In this document: positions 19,031 through 25,575 of the stretch, piece after piece
Numbering within the stretch: the stretch's first letter is position 1
Layout of the letters: each line of letters starts with the position of its first letter
Source: Thermoflexus hugenholtzii JAD2
GTDB taxonomy: Bacteria > Chloroflexota > UBA11872 > UBA12225
DNA: 47,331 bases
Assembly (NCBI GenBank): GCA_945907765.1
Contig: CAMDTO010000006.1
Coordinates: 1 to 47,331, forward strand
Direction: 5' to 3'
The notes under the pieces: generated by a model
Told to the model about the DNA's origin: nothing
Databases searched by the model: none
The model's input: the letters and a program-made list of their open reading frames with translations, nothing else
Program-made: the position numbers and the translations under genes

Positions 19031-20539
19031 CTACGTGGACGAGGACGCCGCTCGAACGGTCACGGTGCGCGGTGGACGCACGATAACCGCAACGATGAAT
19101 GCGGCGGCAGCGCACGCCACACTGACCGCGAAAACCGTCTGGAATCCCAGCATCAGTGCAGCCGACGGCGCCTCGAGCTCGGAGACCCCGGCCGGAGCAT
19201 TCGCGAGCACGACGCCGGTCCAGAGGGCACCGGCGGTTGCCTGTCCGAATGACTGGGCGAGGTTGCGGTTGAGGGCGACCATCCCGCCAACCAGGCCATA
19301 GCGTTCCCGCGGGGCACTCTCGTAGATGGCGCTGTTGTTCGGCACCAGGAAGAGCGACTGCCCAATCCCGATCACCAGCAGACTGATGAGCAGGGGCGTC
19401 GTTGTCCCGGTGTCCGGCAGGAAGACCAGTGAAAGCAGTCCCAGTGCGGTCGTGGTTGCCCCGATGCCCGCAAGGGTCCGTACCCCGATGCGGTCCGACA
19501 GGTAGCCGCTGATCGGGGCAATCGCCGCGCTCGTGGCCGGGATCACGATCAGTCTTGCCCCAATCTGGCTGGCCGGCAGGTGCAGGACAAGAGCCAGGTA
19601 GAAAGGCACGAGCAACCCGACCGGTGCGAGCGTGATGAACAGCAGGAAGGCCGATGCCAAGGCAGCGACAAAACCCTTGCTTTGGAAGAGCACCAGATCG
19701 ATCAGTGGGTGCGCCACCCGCCGTTCGACGACGACCAAGGCAACAATTGCGCCCATCCCGATGGCGATCGCACCGATGGTGAGCGGACTTTCCCATCCCC
19801 AGTGGGACCCTTGGGTCACACCCAGAAGCGTCGCGCCCGCACCAGTCACCAAAAGAATTGCCCCGGCAAGATCGAATGGTTGACCTGCCTGCCGTGGCGA
19901 CTTCCCGAGCAATCGCAATCCCATGAAGATCGCCATCATGCTGATCGGGACAGTCACGTAGAAGGCCCAGCGCCAGCCGATGAACTCGGTGATGAACCCG
20001 CCGATGACCGGCCCGGAGAGTAAACCGATGGAGACGACGGAACTCTGCAACCCCAGGGCCCGCCCACGTTCCTTCGCCGGGAATGCCGACGCCACGAGTG
20101 CCCCGGTGTTGGCCTGGATCAATGCGCCGGCAATGCCCTGGACGACCCGTGCAAGGATCAGCCAGTAGACACCGGGCGCGAGCCCACACAGGATTGACGC
20201 CAGTCCGAATGCACCGAACCCGAAGAGGAAGACGTCACGGCGACCGCGCAGGTCGGCAAGCTTGCCAGCCGGAAGCAGGAACCCGGTAACTGAAAGCACG
20301 TAGCCAAGCGACACCCACTGGGTGATGGTCAGCGCCGCGTCGAACTCCCGGGCCAGGGCCGGCAGCGCCACATTGACCACCCCACTGTCCAGGGTGACCA
20401 TGAAAATGCCACTGCCCGAGACAAACAGCACCTTCCACTTGAAGTAGGGGTCATCAGGTGGCGCAATAGGTGAAGTCGGCGGAGCGGACGTGGGGCGAAC
20501 CTGGTTCGCAAGTGCCTCGGGGGATTTCGAACTCATCAC
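19031..20539 (-). CDS. MFS efflux transporter, DHA2 (EmrB/QacA) family
   Basis: LDSGVVNVALP, GKLADLRGRR, ERGRALG, GPVIGG...WRWAF and a roughly 14-TM pattern. Confidence 0.92.
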   Translation of the reverse strand: MMSSKSPEALANQVRPTSAPPTSPIAPPDDPYFKWKVLFVSGSGIFMVTLDSGVVNVALPALAREFDAALTITQWVSLGYVLSVTGFLLPAGKLADLRGRRDVFLFGFGAFGLASILCGLAPGVYWLILARVVQGIAGALIQANTGALVASAFPAKERGRALGLQSSVVSIGLLSGPVIGGFITEFIGWRWAFYVTVPISMMAIFMGLRLLGKSPRQAGQPFDLAGAILLVTGAGATLLGVTQGSHWGWESPLTIGAIAIGMGAIVALVVVERRVAHPLIDLVLFQSKGFVAALASAFLLFITLAPVGLLVPFYLALVLHLPASQIGARLIVIPATSAAIAPISGYLSDRIGVRTLAGIGATTTALGLLSLVFLPDTGTTTPLLISLLVIGIGQSLFLVPNNSAIYESAPRERYGLVGGMVALNRNLAQSFGQATAGALWTGVVLANAPAGVSELEAPSAALMLGFQTVFAVSVACAAAAFIVAVIVRPPRTVTVRAASSST

Positions 20540-20639
20540 GGGATCCGATGCGTCTGCGGTTGTCAGGTTTCAGCGAGCAACGGCCCCTCTCGCGCCGCAA
20601 CGGCATAGGGGTAGGTCATTGGAAACGCCCCGGGGTGCA

Positions 20640-21155
20640 TCAATCGCGCGGGGCAGCTTCCTTGAGGGCTTGGTCGATGGCGTTCCGTATCAGCCGCGAA
20701 TCCGGGTCAGTTGCCGGCGCCCACCGGCCGACCAGTGTCCCGTCGCGGCCGATCAGGAACTTCGCAAAGTTCCACTCAACCTTTCCCGGCTTCAACGGTT
20801 GCGTGGTCAACCAGTGGTAGACCGGATGGATCTCCCGTCCCACGCAGTGCACCTTGTCGAACAGTCGGTAGGTCGCACCGTACTGTCGCCGACAGAACGC
20901 GGCGATTTCCGGCAGGTCACCCGGTTCCTCGTTGGCGAAGTCATTGCAGGGAAACCCGAGAACGCGGAAGCCCTTTGGCCCGTACCGCTTCTCGAGGACG
21001 GCCAGCACACCGTGCTGGGGAGTGTGGCCTCAATAACTCGCCGTGTTGACGATCATCAGGACATCGCCACGGTACGGCGCGAGGGTCGTGGGGTTGCCTT
21101 CGGCATCATTGACCGTGATGCTGTAGATCGTTTCCGGTGTCTTTGGTGCGGGCAT
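20640..21155 (-). CDS. Glutathione peroxidase family protein, probable selenoprotein (Sec at codon 42, TGA at 21030-21032)
   Basis: Reading from ATG 21155 (AAGGA RBS) gives ...DVLMIVNTASY[TGA]GHTPQH...LGFPCNDF..EPG...WNFAKFLIGRDG. The TGA occupies the catalytic Cys position of the VNTASxCGxTPQ motif; 171 aa. Confidence 0.88.
20998..21029 (-). promoter_or_regulatory. Candidate bacterial SECIS hairpin
   Basis: On the minus strand, after the TGA: GGCCACACTCC-CCAGCAC-GGT-GTGCTGG. This is a perfect 7-bp stem whose G-leading loop starts 18 nt after the UGA. Confidence 0.65.
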
Positions 21156-21180
21156 TGTCGGTGTCCTTCATCGGGGAATT

Positions 21181-21202
21181 CCCCTTTCCCGCTTGGGAAA
21201 GG
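21181..21202. repeat. REP-like palindrome
   Basis: CCTTTCCC-GCTT-GGGAAAGG, an 8-bp stem, similar to the element at 27888-27913. Confidence 0.45.
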
Positions 21203-21273
21203 AGTGGGGTCATGGAGCGGAGATGGGCTGATAGGGGGTCTTCAATTGGACCGGGTATCGGCAGGCTACGTTC

Positions 21274-22131
21274 TCACGCAACTGGCGCGAACGTGACCCC
21301 ACCCCGCTTGGCTGCATCGGTCAGCGTGCGGTAACTCCGGGCGGCGACCTCTGCGGGATCGTAGCCCGGCCGGTTCTGCACCATCTTGCTGATCTCGACG
21401 GTGATTGCCCCGTCGTAGCCAGCCTTCTCGATCGCTGGCAGGTACGCCGCGTAGTCGAATGTTCCCTCGCCGGGCACAAGGAACTCGAACCCCGGCGCAA
21501 TGCCACGCTGGTCCTTCATGTGGGTATGCACCGCGTATCGGGTCAGCTGGGGGACATATGTATGGAAATCACAGCCCATCACTTCAAAGTGGCTGTTGTC
21601 GAAATTCAAGCGGAAGTTCGGTGAGTCCACGGCGTCCAGGACCCACTGCACGCGGTCCGGCAGGTCTAGTGCCTGCCCGACGTGCGGTTCCAATGCGACG
21701 ATCACGCCAAGGTGCGCCCCGGCACGCGCCAGTTCCGCGAAATTGTCGGCAATCTGTTGCCGGTGGGTACCGAACTGTTCCGGGAGGCCGAATCCCATGG
21801 TCACCACACACGGCGGCCCAGACGGTCCTGCCAGGCGTACGGCGAGTTCCATGCCGGCGATCACCCGGGCGCACGCATGGGCACGCACCGCCGGGTCGGT
21901 CTCAAGCAGGTTCCCGTGGCAGGCGATTGACGGCAATTCCAATCCGGACTCGTCAAGCGCGCGCCTGATATCCCGCACCTCGGTATCCGTCACCGTCATC
22001 GGGTTGAGGGCATCCGTATCCCCGCCGACCAATTCGATCGAGTGATAGCCCAATCCATGCACCAGCGATATCTGGTCCCGAACCGGCATCGTCGACATCG
22101 CCCACGCACTGAATCCCAGACGCATTGTCAC
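21274..22131 (-). CDS. Sugar phosphate isomerase/epimerase (xylose-isomerase-like TIM barrel)
   Basis: GYHSIEL, ALEPH, NFDNSH, HTHMKD, PGEG and GYDGAITVE. Confidence 0.9.
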   Translation of the reverse strand: MTMRLGFSAWAMSTMPVRDQISLVHGLGYHSIELVGGDTDALNPMTVTDTEVRDIRRALDESGLELPSIACHGNLLETDPAVRAHACARVIAGMELAVRLAGPSGPPCVVTMGFGLPEQFGTHRQQIADNFAELARAGAHLGVIVALEPHVGQALDLPDRVQWVLDAVDSPNFRLNFDNSHFEVMGCDFHTYVPQLTRYAVHTHMKDQRGIAPGFEFLVPGEGTFDYAAYLPAIEKAGYDGAITVEISKMVQNRPGYDPAEVAARSYRTLTDAAKRGGVTFAPVA

Positions 22132-22241: not shown

Positions 22242-22303
22242 TTGCCATGGCGTCGCTTTCCGTCCGGGGTGCTGGCGCAACGCGCCGAGAACGAGAGAAC
22301 ACC

Positions 22304-22702
22304 GTGGCTACACCAAACCGCCGCTCCCATGTCCTGAACCGCTTGAAGAGCATCGACGGTCACCTCCGGGGGGTGATGCGCATGGTTGAGGACGATGCGT
22401 ACTGCATCGATGTCATCCAGCAGTTGCAGGCGGTTCAGGGTGCGGTCGGACGTGTCGCTTCGGTCTTGCTGGAAGACCATCTCCAGACCTGCGTCACCCA
22501 TGCCATCCAGGGAAACGACAGCGACGAGCGGACGCGTGTCATCGGAGAACTCCTTCGATTGTTCGACGCCGGTGCACGTACCACCAGTGACGAAGTGTCG
22601 CCTGGCGCCGACGCCACGATTGCGAACGGGGAGGTTGGTGGCCCCTTCCAGCATGCGTCCGCGTCTCCCGCCGTCCCCGCCGGGGCCCGGATACCGCGAT
22701 GA
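22304..22702 (+). CDS. csoR: Copper-sensing transcriptional repressor CsoR
   Basis: [19 protein letters not shown]...Q..AV...LEDHLQTC (Cys-His-Cys Cu(I) site); first gene of the copA operon. Start GTG 22304 (the ORF extends to 22247). Confidence 0.9.
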
Positions 22703-25575
22703 CCGTTGACGCACCCCACACCACGCAATCACCCGGTGAGCACGAGTCGCTTCGAGTATCCCCACCGCGCGAAACCCATGAGCTCGCATCAGGCGAAGTG
22801 ATCCTCCAGATCACGGGCATGACCTGCGCGTCGTGCGTACGCCGGGTGGAAAAGGCGACCCTGAAAGTCCCCGGGATCGTTGAAGCGTCCGTCAACCTTG
22901 CCACGGAGCGCGCGCGCATCCGGTTCGCGGACGGCGTTGTCCTTGACGCCGCCGTTCTGCTCGATGCCGTCCGCCGTGCGGGGTACGACGCGCACGTCGT
23001 ACCCGACCACGTGCAGCAAACCGTGGTCGTGCAGGATTCCCCCGACACCGCAATTGAGATTGCCGGTGGGTCCGGCGCGGGCGAACTTGCCTCGCGGGCC
23101 GGCATCGGTCTTGCTGCGTATTCCCTCGTGACCTCTGGCGTCATCATGTCCCTGATGTTCTGGCCGGGAGCTGCTAGGGGGTGGCCCAACCTTCCGGTCT
23201 CCATGCAGGTTCTCCATTGGACCTTGCTCGCGATGGCGACACCGGTCCAGTTCTGGGCGGGTGCCGGTTTCTACCGGAGTGCTTGGAACGCCCTGCGTCA
23301 CGGGTCGGCGAACATGCACTCGCTCGTCGCTGTCGGAACGACGGCGGCGTATGCGTGGAGTGCCGTCGTCACCGTCTTCCCCGACTGGTTTGCGGGATCC
23401 GGTGTCGCCGCTGAAACATGGTTCGATACGTCGACCGTGATCATCGGGCTCATCCTGGCCGGGCGGTACCTCGAGGACCGCGCGCGTCGCCAGACTGGTC
23501 TCGCAATTGGCAAGCTGCTGTCCCTGCAACCACCTGAAGCGATCCTGTTGGATGGTGCGATCGAACGCCGGGTTGCCGTTGCCACCGTCCGGGTAGGGGA
23601 CCTCCTGCGAGTCCGGCCCGGGTCTCGCGTCCCGGTCGATGGCACGGTACTTGAGGGCCGTTCCAGCGTGGACGAATCGATGCTGACTGGCGAAAGCATG
23701 CCGGTCTCCCGCGCGGCGGGCGGTCAGGTGATTGGTGCCACGCTCAATGGGACGGGCAGCTTTGTCATGCAGGCCACTCGCGTCGGGCGCGATACGACGC
23801 TCGCCCAGGTCGTCCGCCTCGTTGAGGACGCCCAAGCCTCCAAGGCACCTGTCCAGCGCCTCGCCGACCGGGTCGCAGAGGTCTTTGTACCGGTCGTGTT
23901 CATCCTCGCCGCGGTGACGTTCGTTCTCTGGTGGTTCCTCGGGCCGGAACCCCGGATCGGGCACGCGCTCTCCTCCCTGATCGCCGTCCTGATCATCGCC
24001 TGTCCGTGTGCGATGGGCCTTGCCACGCCAACAGCCATCATCGTCGCTACTGGCGAAGGGGCCTCGCGAGGTGTCCTGATCCGTGGGGGTGATGCCCTGG
24101 AGCGCGCTGGCCTCGTCAAGACCGTTGTCCTCGACAAGACAGGAACGCTCACGACGGGGCATCCCGCGCTGACCGATCTCTGGCTTGATCCTGCCTTTCC
24201 GGGTGCTGGTGCAAGTGCGACGAGGACCACGATCCTCCGTCTGGTCGCCGGTGCCGAACGCCAATCGGAACATCCGCTTGGCGAGGCGATCGTCCGCGCC
24301 GCCCGGGCCGAGGGCATCGACATTCCGGAACCCGTGCAGTTCTCGTCGGTGCCCGGAAGAGGACTGGAGGCCACGGTAGACGGTCGGCATCTCATCATCG
24401 GATCGGCTGATCACCTTGGGTCGCATGGCATTCCGGTTGGATCGTTGCTTGCGGAAGCGGCGTCGGTCTCCCGGTGTGGACGCACCGCAATCCTTGTCGC
24501 CATCGACGGCCTCCCCGCTGCGGTATTCGGCGTCGCGGACACCTTGAAGCCCACATCGGTCGCGGCGGTTGAGGCATTTCGTTCCCTCGGTCTTGATGTC
24601 TGGATGCTGACCGGAGACAGTGCGGCGACGGCAGCGGCGATTGCCCTCGAGGCCGGGATTGCCATGGACCGTGTCATCTCGGGCGTATTGCCAAGCGGCA
24701 AGGCGGACGCGATTGCCCGGCTTCAGGCCGGTGGCAACATCGTCGCGATGGTCGGGGATGGCGTCAATGACGCACCCGCGCTTGCCCGTGCTGACCTTGG
24801 CGTCGCTGTCGGGACGGGCACCGACGTCGCGATTGCCGCCTCAGACATCACGCTTGTCGGTGGCGATCTCAACGGCGTCGTCGAAGCGATCCGGCTGAGC
24901 CGCCAAACCGTCACGGTCATCAAGCAGAACCTTTTCTGGGCGTTTGCCTACAACCTGATCCTGATCCCCGTGGCGATGGGGGTGCTGTATCCCTTCACCG
25001 GCACGATCCTGAACCCCGGCCTTGCTGCCGGTGCGATGGCGCTGTCAAGCGTCTCGGTGATCACCAACTCGCTTCGGCTCCGTCGCGGGTCTCGCCCAGC
25101 CGATCCGGTCGTCCCTGCAAGGACCCGTCTTCTGGCTACGGCGGGCGCACTCGGTATCGTCATCGGTGGCGCTGGTCTCGGGCTTGCCATCCAGTCAATC
25201 GGATTGAAGGCACCGGCGAAACTTGATCCGGTCGCGATTGCCGTGGTTGCGCGCGACGGGGCCTTTTCACCAACGTCAATGCGCCTGACTGTCGGGCAAC
25301 CGGTCACGATCAGTTTCGAGAACCGTGGAAGCACGGCGCACGACCTCACGGTGCTTGGTGGTATCCGGGTCAGTGACCTGGTGGTGACCGATGCCATGGC
25401 CGGGGCTGCCCATGTGATGGGTGGAACCAATCCGGTCAGGGTCGCTGCAAGTCCGGGAAAGACCGGCACGATTGCGTTCGTCCCCGTCAGTGCCGGTGTC
25501 TACCCCCTGATGTGCACCGAGGCAGGGCAGAAGGAGGCCGGCATGGTCGCCGCCCTCACCGTGGTCGCCAAATGA
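22699..25575 (+). CDS. copA: Cu(I)-exporting P1B-1 ATPase with an N-terminal HMA domain and a fused C-terminal TM + cupredoxin domain
   Basis: GMTCASC, TGES, CPC, DKTGT, SEHPL, GDGVND, YN and MALSS; about 160 extra residues after NSLRLRR. ATGA overlap with csoR. Confidence 0.95.

Follow-up and report, generated by a model that had tools for sequence, protein, structure and literature searches.

The minus strand of the 47,331-nucleotide (nt) stretch analysed here (contig CAMDTO010000006.1, positions 1 to 47,331; "the window" below means this whole stretch) carries between 21155 and 20640 what we consider, with a probability of about 92%, to be a genuine gene for a selenocysteine-containing peroxidase of the glutathione peroxidase (GPx) family, encoding a selenoprotein of 171 residues. 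An in-frame UGA at codon 42 takes the place of the peroxidatic residue and would be read as selenocysteine (Sec). We infer that Sec is actually inserted, that the product is a peroxidase, that a cysteine at position 88 takes part in the reaction, and what the reductant would be.

The frame runs from the ATG at 21155..21153 to a terminal TGA at 20642..20640, with 171 sense positions and one internal stop. A sequence-only reading of this DNA had already pointed to the gene, and when the sequence was read again the frame, the coordinates, the start at ATG 21155, the AAGGA ribosome-binding site and the 122-residue fragment that it had described all proved exact. It had also claimed that the sole interruption in 171 codons falls on the peroxidatic residue, and TGA codon 42 is indeed the only internal stop. 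The list of open reading frames splits the gene into 21030..21155 (41 aa) and 20640..21008 (122 aa, with a GTG start). When the frame is read through, it matches the Pfam family GSHPx (PF00255) with 107 bits (cut-off 27) over positions 1-107 of the 108 in the model and residues 10-116 of the protein; the TGA therefore lies inside one continuous domain.

The read-through protein was used to query sixty relatives for orthologs. Nine genomes, the source genome (G000) included, gave matches with an internal TGA, all belonging to one family (f1, of which 14 genomes were searched) and distributed over five genera. In all nine orthologs the TGA occupies the same column, always in the context VNTASY-TGA-GHTPQHG, at 55-96% identity, and the N-terminus MPAPKTPE is shared. 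The extra stops of two of them (L029 and L030) are their true terminators, that of L030 being a TGA, and no other stops or frameshifts were found in eight of the nine. A phylum-wide search of 401 genomes gave 45 with a GPx match, among which three further genomes have an in-frame TGA; these belong to a single genus of the same class (g16), two of them are closed genomes, and their proteins read VNLASL-U-GRTPQYVLL. The relatives that carry the gene are uncultured Chloroflexota known as metagenome-assembled genomes (MAGs). In an alignment of the eight full orthologs, the residues that never change ahead of the TGA (codons 13-41) are encoded by two to three different codons. Given this synonymous variation at invariant residues, the N-terminal 41 codons are under selection at the protein level and share their frame with the rest of the gene. 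Such constraint on either side of the TGA excludes a decaying pseudogene as well as a true start at GTG 21008.

The ninth ortholog, on contig C240 of genome G011 (L033/L133), also has the TGA. Its reading frame, however, no longer matches the others past FPCND and stops prematurely, and there is an A-C mismatch in its hairpin. This copy is possibly a pseudogene or an assembly fault.

The sequence-only reading had proposed comparing TGA with TGY codons at this site in homologs, and the outcome was in its favour, with TGA in the nine close homologs and Cys in the more distant ones. The column holds Cys in all 23 Cys-type rows of a 31-sequence alignment and in the solved GPx chains. Among the best 120 database proteins, 113 are full-length Cys forms and seven are truncated forms. 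In metagenomes, TGC or TGT was found in 80 of 80 loci (the best 80 of 573 relatives among 589 stretches); this set serves as a Cys-type comparison only, since the scan pattern VNTASYCG itself specifies Cys codons and tblastn ranks uninterrupted matches first. Two of these metagenome loci (L052 and L061) each have two GPx motifs, VNTASYCGYT and VNTASKCGLT, on one contig and are thus tandem Cys-type genes. The source genome has a canonical Cys-type GPx as well (L035, contig C224:1585-2058, minus strand; VNTASKCGLTPQY, FPCDQFAHQEPG), 44% identical and with a PF00255 score of 124.7 bits, so Sec-type and Cys-type paralogs coexist in it. A second, Cys-type GPx (VNTASKCGLTPQY) is often present in the same genomes as the Sec-type gene.

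The prevalence of Cys at this position might suggest that the window gene is a Cys-type GPx whose catalytic codon was hit by a nonsense mutation or an assembly error, in a locus that is now decaying. The Cys-type gene on C224 could make such a copy dispensable, and the G011 ortholog does look damaged. Nevertheless this explanation is highly improbable, as the TGA holds an identical position in orthologs down to 55% identity and in three more distant genes, eight of the nine orthologs are otherwise intact, and the synonymous variation at conserved residues on both sides of the TGA is the mark of purifying selection on the whole frame. Moreover, independent assemblies and four sequencing runs agree on the TGA. 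The stretch or part of it is present in 20 public runs, six of which are on record as RNA, and the runs compared were three lake metatranscriptome libraries from three studies and one DNA run. The UGA is bridged by contigs of two libraries that show no differences (X15 record 3, 20945-21260; X16 record 6, 20931-21251), by a contig of a variant strain with six differences elsewhere (X18 record 14, 20912-21153) and by the DNA run (X7 record 15). No other letters were seen at 21030-21032 or in the hairpin at 21002-21018 in the four runs compared. Around 20865-20939 there is no depth in X15 and little in X16, from which nothing is concluded.

Eleven nucleotides after the UGA, over codons P46-A52, the message can form a hairpin, CCAGCAC-GGU-GUGCUGG, which resembles a selenocysteine insertion sequence (SECIS). 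According to the part of the bacterial SECIS (bSECIS) model description consulted, such elements have a loop of 3-9 nt with a G in its first two positions, an upper stem of 4-16 bp, 16-37 nt from UGA to loop and a minimum free energy of -7.5 kcal/mol or lower. The window hairpin fits this model with its GGU loop, 7 bp, spacing of 18 nt and -9.8 kcal/mol, and so do the hairpins of seven other orthologs of its clade (clade A; 7 bp, GGU or GGC loop, 18 nt, -9.8 to -9.9 kcal/mol), while that of G011 departs from the model on two counts. The spacer has the same length in all 12 Chloroflexota Sec-type genes. In the genus g16 the hairpin is GCAGUA-CGUGC-UACUGC and stands in the same register as that of the window despite differing residues; the 17-nt core of the three g16 hairpins reaches only -5.6 kcal/mol, which is short of the energy limit of the model.

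The conservation of this stem was evaluated on the 12 sequences, where 94.8% of the stem cells are paired as against 10.4-55.8% when the 3' partner is slid along. None of 500 shuffles reached the observed percentage paired, the number of cells changed on both sides or the covariation score, and RNAalifold returned the same stem unprompted. The outer pair C-G is replaced by G-C in two of the nine clade-A genes, and with the g16 clade added there are compensatory changes at pairs 24-40 (CG/GC) and 28-36 (CG/UA). In addition, the codons of the inner stem (Q47, H48, V50 and L51) show no synonymous variation (0 of 4), whereas 44 of 55 codons of invariant residues elsewhere do.

The source genome (3.3 Mb in 270 contigs, 87% complete) was searched for the Sec machinery with profiles, and the four components that the sequence-only reading had asked after, selA, selB, selD and tRNA-Sec, were all found above their cut-offs. 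The selA gene (479.5 bits) and the selB gene (311.7 bits, or 336.7 with a C-terminal piece in the same frame) are without internal stops. The selD gene scores 349.3 bits and has one in-frame TGA. The tRNA-Sec scores 72.5 bits (gathering score 47) and is called tRNA-SeC with anticodon tca (UCA) by ARAGORN. The two findings named beforehand as fatal to the idea, a genome without Sec machinery and close homologs all with Cys, were thus not what was encountered, and its reading of the UGA as Sec agrees with the TGA column kept in nine of nine orthologs and with the machinery present in the genome.

The TGA of selD (L013, contig C72:2180-3127, minus strand) stands in the context LASCAG-U-ASKLGPG and is followed after about 25 nt by a candidate hairpin, UGGCGCA-CGUGU-UGCGUCA; with this in-frame TGA, selenophosphate synthetase would also be a selenoprotein in this genome. 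Another in-frame TGA was noticed in the long frame of a thioredoxin-like gene (AhpC/TSA, 33 bits; L299, contig C47:12696-13013, minus strand), in the context FWTFC-U-INC, with a stem-loop following after about 21 nt. This gene is probably the third selenoprotein gene of the genome and would be split by gene callers. For comparison a selenoprotein FdhA (formate dehydrogenase alpha) was looked for, and TIGR01591 gave only sub-threshold matches without stops in the source genome, so that no such protein is available to set beside the others.

If TGA were reassigned to Trp or Gly throughout the genome (NCBI tables 4 or 25), an in-frame TGA within a conserved domain would be expected, and the TGAs of selD and of the C47 gene would be accounted for at the same time. 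However, the GPx gene itself and its ortholog L030 end at TGA, and long frames in the window end most often at TGA, as do 28 of the 50 stop-to-stop frames of at least 250 codons. TGA is therefore not reassigned genome-wide. The in-frame TGAs are, furthermore, single, and in GPx, in SelD and in the CxxC-type motif of the C47 gene alike they stand at the position of a redox-active Cys, and selA and selB have none, so that a reassigned code can practically be dismissed.

It is also improbable that the UGA simply terminates translation, leaving the 122-aa piece from GTG 21008 or the 41-aa peptide as the product, or that it is read as Trp, Cys or Gly by a near-cognate tRNA. Gene callers do yield exactly such products of 119-125 aa. 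Recoding competes with termination and is described as 30-40% efficient in E. coli in the part of PMC4513850 consulted; because of this competition, some termination product is to be expected in any case. By the structural model, the first beta strands of the thioredoxin fold and its catalytic residue would both be missing from the 122-aa piece. Its GTG falls inside the 3' arm of the hairpin with no Shine-Dalgarno-like sequence ahead, and conservation at the protein level extends, in frame with the remainder, over the 41 N-terminal codons. Against a read-through without selenium speak the dedicated tRNA-Sec, SelA, SelB and SelD together with a hairpin that fits the SECIS model.

The product of the selenoprotein gene has the features of a GPx in sequence as well as in predicted fold. 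The best match among solved chains was the GPx 6vpd (E 4.9e-37, residues 9-169), followed by yeast Hyr1/Gpx3 (3cmi, E 2e-33). An AlphaFold2 model built on the 31-sequence alignment has a predicted local distance difference test (pLDDT) score of 89.8 and a predicted template modelling (pTM) score of 0.88. All of its top Foldseek matches are GPx chains with template modelling (TM) scores of 0.82-0.86 on the query, the best being poplar GPx5 (2p5q; TM 0.86/0.92, root mean square deviation 1.7), with human GPX4 U46C (2obi; 0.85) and a Staphylococcus aureus GPx also among them. The catalytic tetrad of GPX4 is given as Sec46, Gln81, Trp136 and Asn137 in the published text consulted, and by alignment to the solved chains the equivalents in the window protein are Sec42, Glu76, Trp128 and Asn129. 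The tetrad Gln is the Q of xQEPG, at which the window protein has Glu. In the set of sequences used for the tree, Glu occupies this column in 11 of 11 Chloroflexota Sec rows, in none of 75 other Sec rows and in one of 96 Cys rows; among the best 120 database matches it is present in all seven truncated forms and in one of the 113 full-length ones. Two other explanations for this residue were ruled out. The Asp of FPCNDF does not replace the catalytic Gln, since NDF is also found in Cys-type homologs (18 of 120 database proteins), and Glu does not go with Sec in general, Gln being kept in 75 of 78 Sec-type GPx loci of other phyla. Partial accounts of the family mention a plant GPx with Glu for the tetrad Gln and GPx8 with Ser, so the tetrad is variable within accepted members.

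Cys88, in AAFCRRQYG, is a candidate resolving cysteine. It sits 12 residues past the tetrad Gln position, the spacing that the literature consulted in part gives for the resolving Cys of GPx enzymes. Concerning the reductant, gshB (TIGR01380, PF02955) and an E. coli-type gshA (PF04262) were not found in the source genome, which is 87% complete, nor in four further carriers, of which two are closed genomes, in searches that did not extend to other routes to glutathione or low-molecular-weight thiols. A thioredoxin reductase is present in the source genome (359.3 bits, cut-off 343.45). The alignment of Cys88, the lack of hits for gshB and E. coli-type gshA and the presence of thioredoxin reductase together point to a thioredoxin-coupled Sec-Cys cycle, and the enzyme probably works as a peroxidase with thioredoxin, not as a true glutathione peroxidase.

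The following scheme can be proposed on this basis. SelA would make Sec-tRNA(Sec) from selenophosphate supplied by SelD, and SelB carrying this tRNA would bind the hairpin at 21018..21002, 11 nt past UGA42, so that Sec is inserted at UGA42 in place of termination. The product would be a GPx of the monomeric type with Sec42 as the peroxidatic residue, flanked by Trp128 and Asn129 and with Glu76 replacing the tetrad Gln. Its selenolate would reduce a hydroperoxide and be converted to the selenenic acid, which Cys88 may resolve to an intramolecular selenenylsulfide. Thioredoxin, recycled by the thioredoxin reductase of the genome, would then reduce the selenenylsulfide.

Several observations weigh against the reading as a working selenoprotein gene or limit how far it can be taken. 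The contigs from RNA libraries can contain DNA and so show presence, which is not proof of transcription. A selB above cut-off was found in only six of the nine genomes carrying the Sec-type gene, the other three (G002, G006 and G011) being 83, 75 and 77% complete. Since selB occurs in 50 of 61 relatives, with or without the gene, the co-occurrence with the machinery does not discriminate. Regarding the hairpin, two of the five covariation measures do not exceed shuffles, the number of pairs with a change on both sides being reached by 329 of 500 and that of further pair types by 497 of 500; the covariation sample consists of 11 distinct, related sequences, and the hairpin overlaps the conserved peptide PQHGVL. 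The 66 nt after the UGA fold no better than shuffles (z -0.17; 75 of 200 as good), so the case for the hairpin rests on the local stem and its conservation and not on overall stability. Rfam at the gathering threshold gave no matches over the whole window, which is uninformative for bacterial SECIS elements within coding regions. On the side of the enzyme, full peroxidase competence is not guaranteed with Glu in place of the tetrad Gln. Where the window protein has Cys88, two orthologs (L027 and L028) and four of the seven truncated database forms have Met and the g16 clade has Ala; a selenenylsulfide step is therefore not general to the clade.

Selenoproteins of this family have been described before. 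A GPX-like protein (PF00255, UxxT) is listed among the prokaryotic selenoproteins in the portions of reviews consulted, as "predicted with high confidence". It shares with the window gene the Pfam family, Sec in U-G-x-T at the peroxidatic position and a SECIS in the coding region directly after the UGA. The available text of a Sargasso Sea survey reports five prokaryotic Sec-GPx sequences, and that of a 2006 genome survey a single one, in Treponema denticola (PMC1794560). The latter also assigns three selenoprotein families to Chloroflexi, which are not named in the passage concerned (PMC1794560). The parts consulted of two reviews ("Chloroflex", 0 occurrences) and of the 2006 survey (PMC1794560) make no mention of Chloroflexi with a Sec-GPx; supplementary tables may list such genes.

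Species genomes were searched for the strict DNA pattern U-G-H-T-P-Q-H-G, which gave 17 stretches, seven of them GPx genes and all of these in Chloroflexota MAGs. The looser pattern V-N-x-A-S-x-U-G-x-T-P-Q/H gave at least 120 stretches in six or more phyla, and 78 of the 80 matches with flanking DNA passed a simple GPx test. Among the matches listed, Sec-GPx genes span Acidimicrobiia (with Ilumatobacter nonamiensis and Salinilacustrithrix flava as cultured carriers), Gammaproteobacteria, Planctomycetota, Myxococcota, Clostridia and Chloroflexota. Sec-type GPx is thus common in bacteria, and the window adds a lineage, not a kind. With pattern matches in at least 120 species genomes of six or more phyla, Sec-GPx would seem to be much more common than the early surveys suggested, which had counted a single genome and five sequences from metagenomes.

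The main bacterial Sec-GPx clade (Acidimicrobiia, Gammaproteobacteria such as OM182 and Pseudomonadales, and Myxococcota) shares with the window protein V-N-x-A-S-x-U-G-x-T-P-Q, WNF and a similar length, and its genes likewise have a coding-region hairpin with a small G-rich loop. Unlike the window gene it keeps the tetrad Gln (the 75 of 78 loci given above) and is mostly without a Cys at the resolving position (EFATSKY-type), and its hairpin, GUACGCA-GGUC-UGCGUAC, begins 14 nt after the UGA as against 11 in the window clade. In this main clade (L179-L258) almost invariant nucleotides after the UGA, CAGTACGCAGGTCTGCGTAC, form the hairpin and are common to Actinomycetota, Pseudomonadota and Myxococcota. 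The constancy of CAGTACGCAGGTCTGCGTAC suggests either a strong constraint at the RNA level or horizontal transfer.

Poplar GPx5 (2p5q) and yeast Hyr1/Gpx3 (3cmi) are thioredoxin-dependent 2-Cys GPx enzymes. They are similar to the window protein in their monomeric-type length, and the Cys of AQFCQ in Hyr1 aligns with Cys88, whereas their peroxidatic residue is Cys and not Sec. Mammalian GPX4, which uses glutathione, has Sec at the equivalent position, the monomeric GPx fold and the Trp-Asn pair in common with the window protein; it differs in its eukaryotic SECIS in the 3' untranslated region and in having Gln and not Glu in the tetrad, and the GPX4-derived chain has Ala at the resolving position. 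The SECIS of E. coli formate dehydrogenase, the reference element for bacteria, is, like that of the window, an in-frame hairpin just 3' of the UGA with a small apical loop of G then G/U, and has a different sequence. The minimal E. coli SECIS must sit 11 nt from the UGA and has the loop GGUC. Many bacterial SECIS elements bear no resemblance to those of E. coli, according to the portion of a review consulted.

The origin of the Chloroflexota genes was approached with two trees. In a FastTree tree of 183 rows with the active-site column masked, the window clade (eight rows, support 99) falls inside a group of 43 rows (support 85), the rest of which consists of Cys-type proteins with VNTASY-C-G and NDF and of the g16 clade, and 73 of the 76 other Sec-type rows fall outside this group. 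A quick IQ-TREE tree of 54 rows, sub-sampled by identity and at random and with the long-branched L192 left out, gave the same picture, with the Cys-type proteins P0066, P0100 and P0112 as sisters of the window clade (support 94). Approximately unbiased (AU) tests did not reject the union of the window clade with g16 (clade B; p 0.171) or with the main Sec clade (p 0.118). Placing all Sec rows in a single clade gave p 0.031, with groups that had been named after seeing the tree. A separate Cys-to-Sec switch in the Chloroflexota Sec clades is suggested by these sequence comparisons but not established. A common origin of the window clade and the g16 clade seems likely, since the two have Glu76, the motif FPxNDFA[DN]EEPG and the register of the hairpin in common.

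These clades are set apart by their own hairpin, by Glu for the tetrad Gln and by a resolving Cys that some of their members have and others do not. It might be proposed that they represent a separately derived lineage, arisen from the Cys-type group with VNTASY-C-G and FPxNDF instead of from the main bacterial Sec-GPx clade, and having a re-wired Sec/Glu/Trp/Asn active site, which we regard as a tentative and rather doubtful view. Within the sampled rows it is only in company with Sec, in the Chloroflexota rows, that a carboxylate has become fixed at the position of the tetrad Gln. If the view is true, a selenolate may, unlike a thiolate, tolerate or exploit a negative charge close by, and the loss of the resolving Cys to Met or Ala would shift part of the lineage from a Sec-Cys/thioredoxin cycle to a one-Sec mechanism. 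Since the Glu-for-Gln tetrad is confined to the Sec clades of Chloroflexota, it amounts to an experiment of nature on how the reactivity of selenol versus thiol is tuned by the tetrad. The Glu at this position and the patchy presence of the resolving Cys within the clade are a modest mechanistic curiosity.

The value of the gene lies mainly in an annotation fix for an uncultured freshwater Chloroflexota lineage. It had been foreseen that automatic annotation would truncate the gene, and the seven nearest database proteins are indeed 119-125 aa long and cover 68-71% of the query. Because the gene is called as such a fragment, an antioxidant selenoenzyme and a selenium requirement are missed in metabolic reconstructions. 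The same annotation loss applies to selD and probably to the thioredoxin-like gene on C47.

The features of the gene and its neighbours are collected in Table 1.

Table 1. Positions of the Sec-type GPx gene, its elements and the adjacent genes in the window
Feature	Position	Strand	Remarks
Complete coding sequence of Sec-containing GPx-family peroxidase (probable)	20640..21155	-	171 residues plus terminal TGA
Shine-Dalgarno-like AAGGA	21164..21168	-	8 nt before ATG; putative function
UGA codon 42, predicted to be read as Sec (peroxidatic residue)	21030..21032	-	Context VNTASY-U-GHTPQH
Spacer from UGA to hairpin, 11 nt	21019..21029	-	Length constant across the 12 Chloroflexota Sec-type genes
SECIS-like hairpin CCAGCAC-GGU-GUGCUGG, 7 bp stem, 3-nt loop	21002..21018	-	Codons P46-A52
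Glu76 codon at tetrad Gln position	20928..20930	-	ANEEPG, against GKQEPG/GHQEPG in solved chains
Cys88 codon, candidate resolving Cys (AAFCRRQYG)	20892..20894	-	Aligns with Cys of AQFCQ in Hyr1/Gpx3 (3cmi)
Trp128-Asn129 codons (WNF motif)	20769..20774	-	Invariant in 31 of 31 aligned sequences
Terminal TGA, ordinary stop of the same gene	20640..20642	-	Read from the sequence
MFS transporter gene	19031..20539	-	Downstream neighbour of the GPx gene, same strand
Xylose-isomerase-like TIM-barrel gene	21274..22131	-	Upstream neighbour of the GPx gene, same strand
CsoR-type metal-sensitive repressor (PF02583) and copper-type P-type ATPase	22247-25575	+	Upstream, other strand

The neighbouring genes have no bearing on the reading of the Sec-type GPx. 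A scan of 20400-21400 returned no promoter-like sites and one terminator-like site inside the downstream gene, no more than in shuffles. An open frame of 268 aa (20490-21296, plus strand) runs antisense across the whole GPx gene and is taken to be spurious, of a kind common in DNA of 64% G+C. Further upstream, the gene of the CsoR-type repressor overlaps by 4 nt the start of that of the heavy-metal P-type ATPase, a protein of 958 aa with an HMA domain at its N-terminus and a cupredoxin-like one (PF13473, 27.8 bits, just above the cut-off) at its C-terminus.

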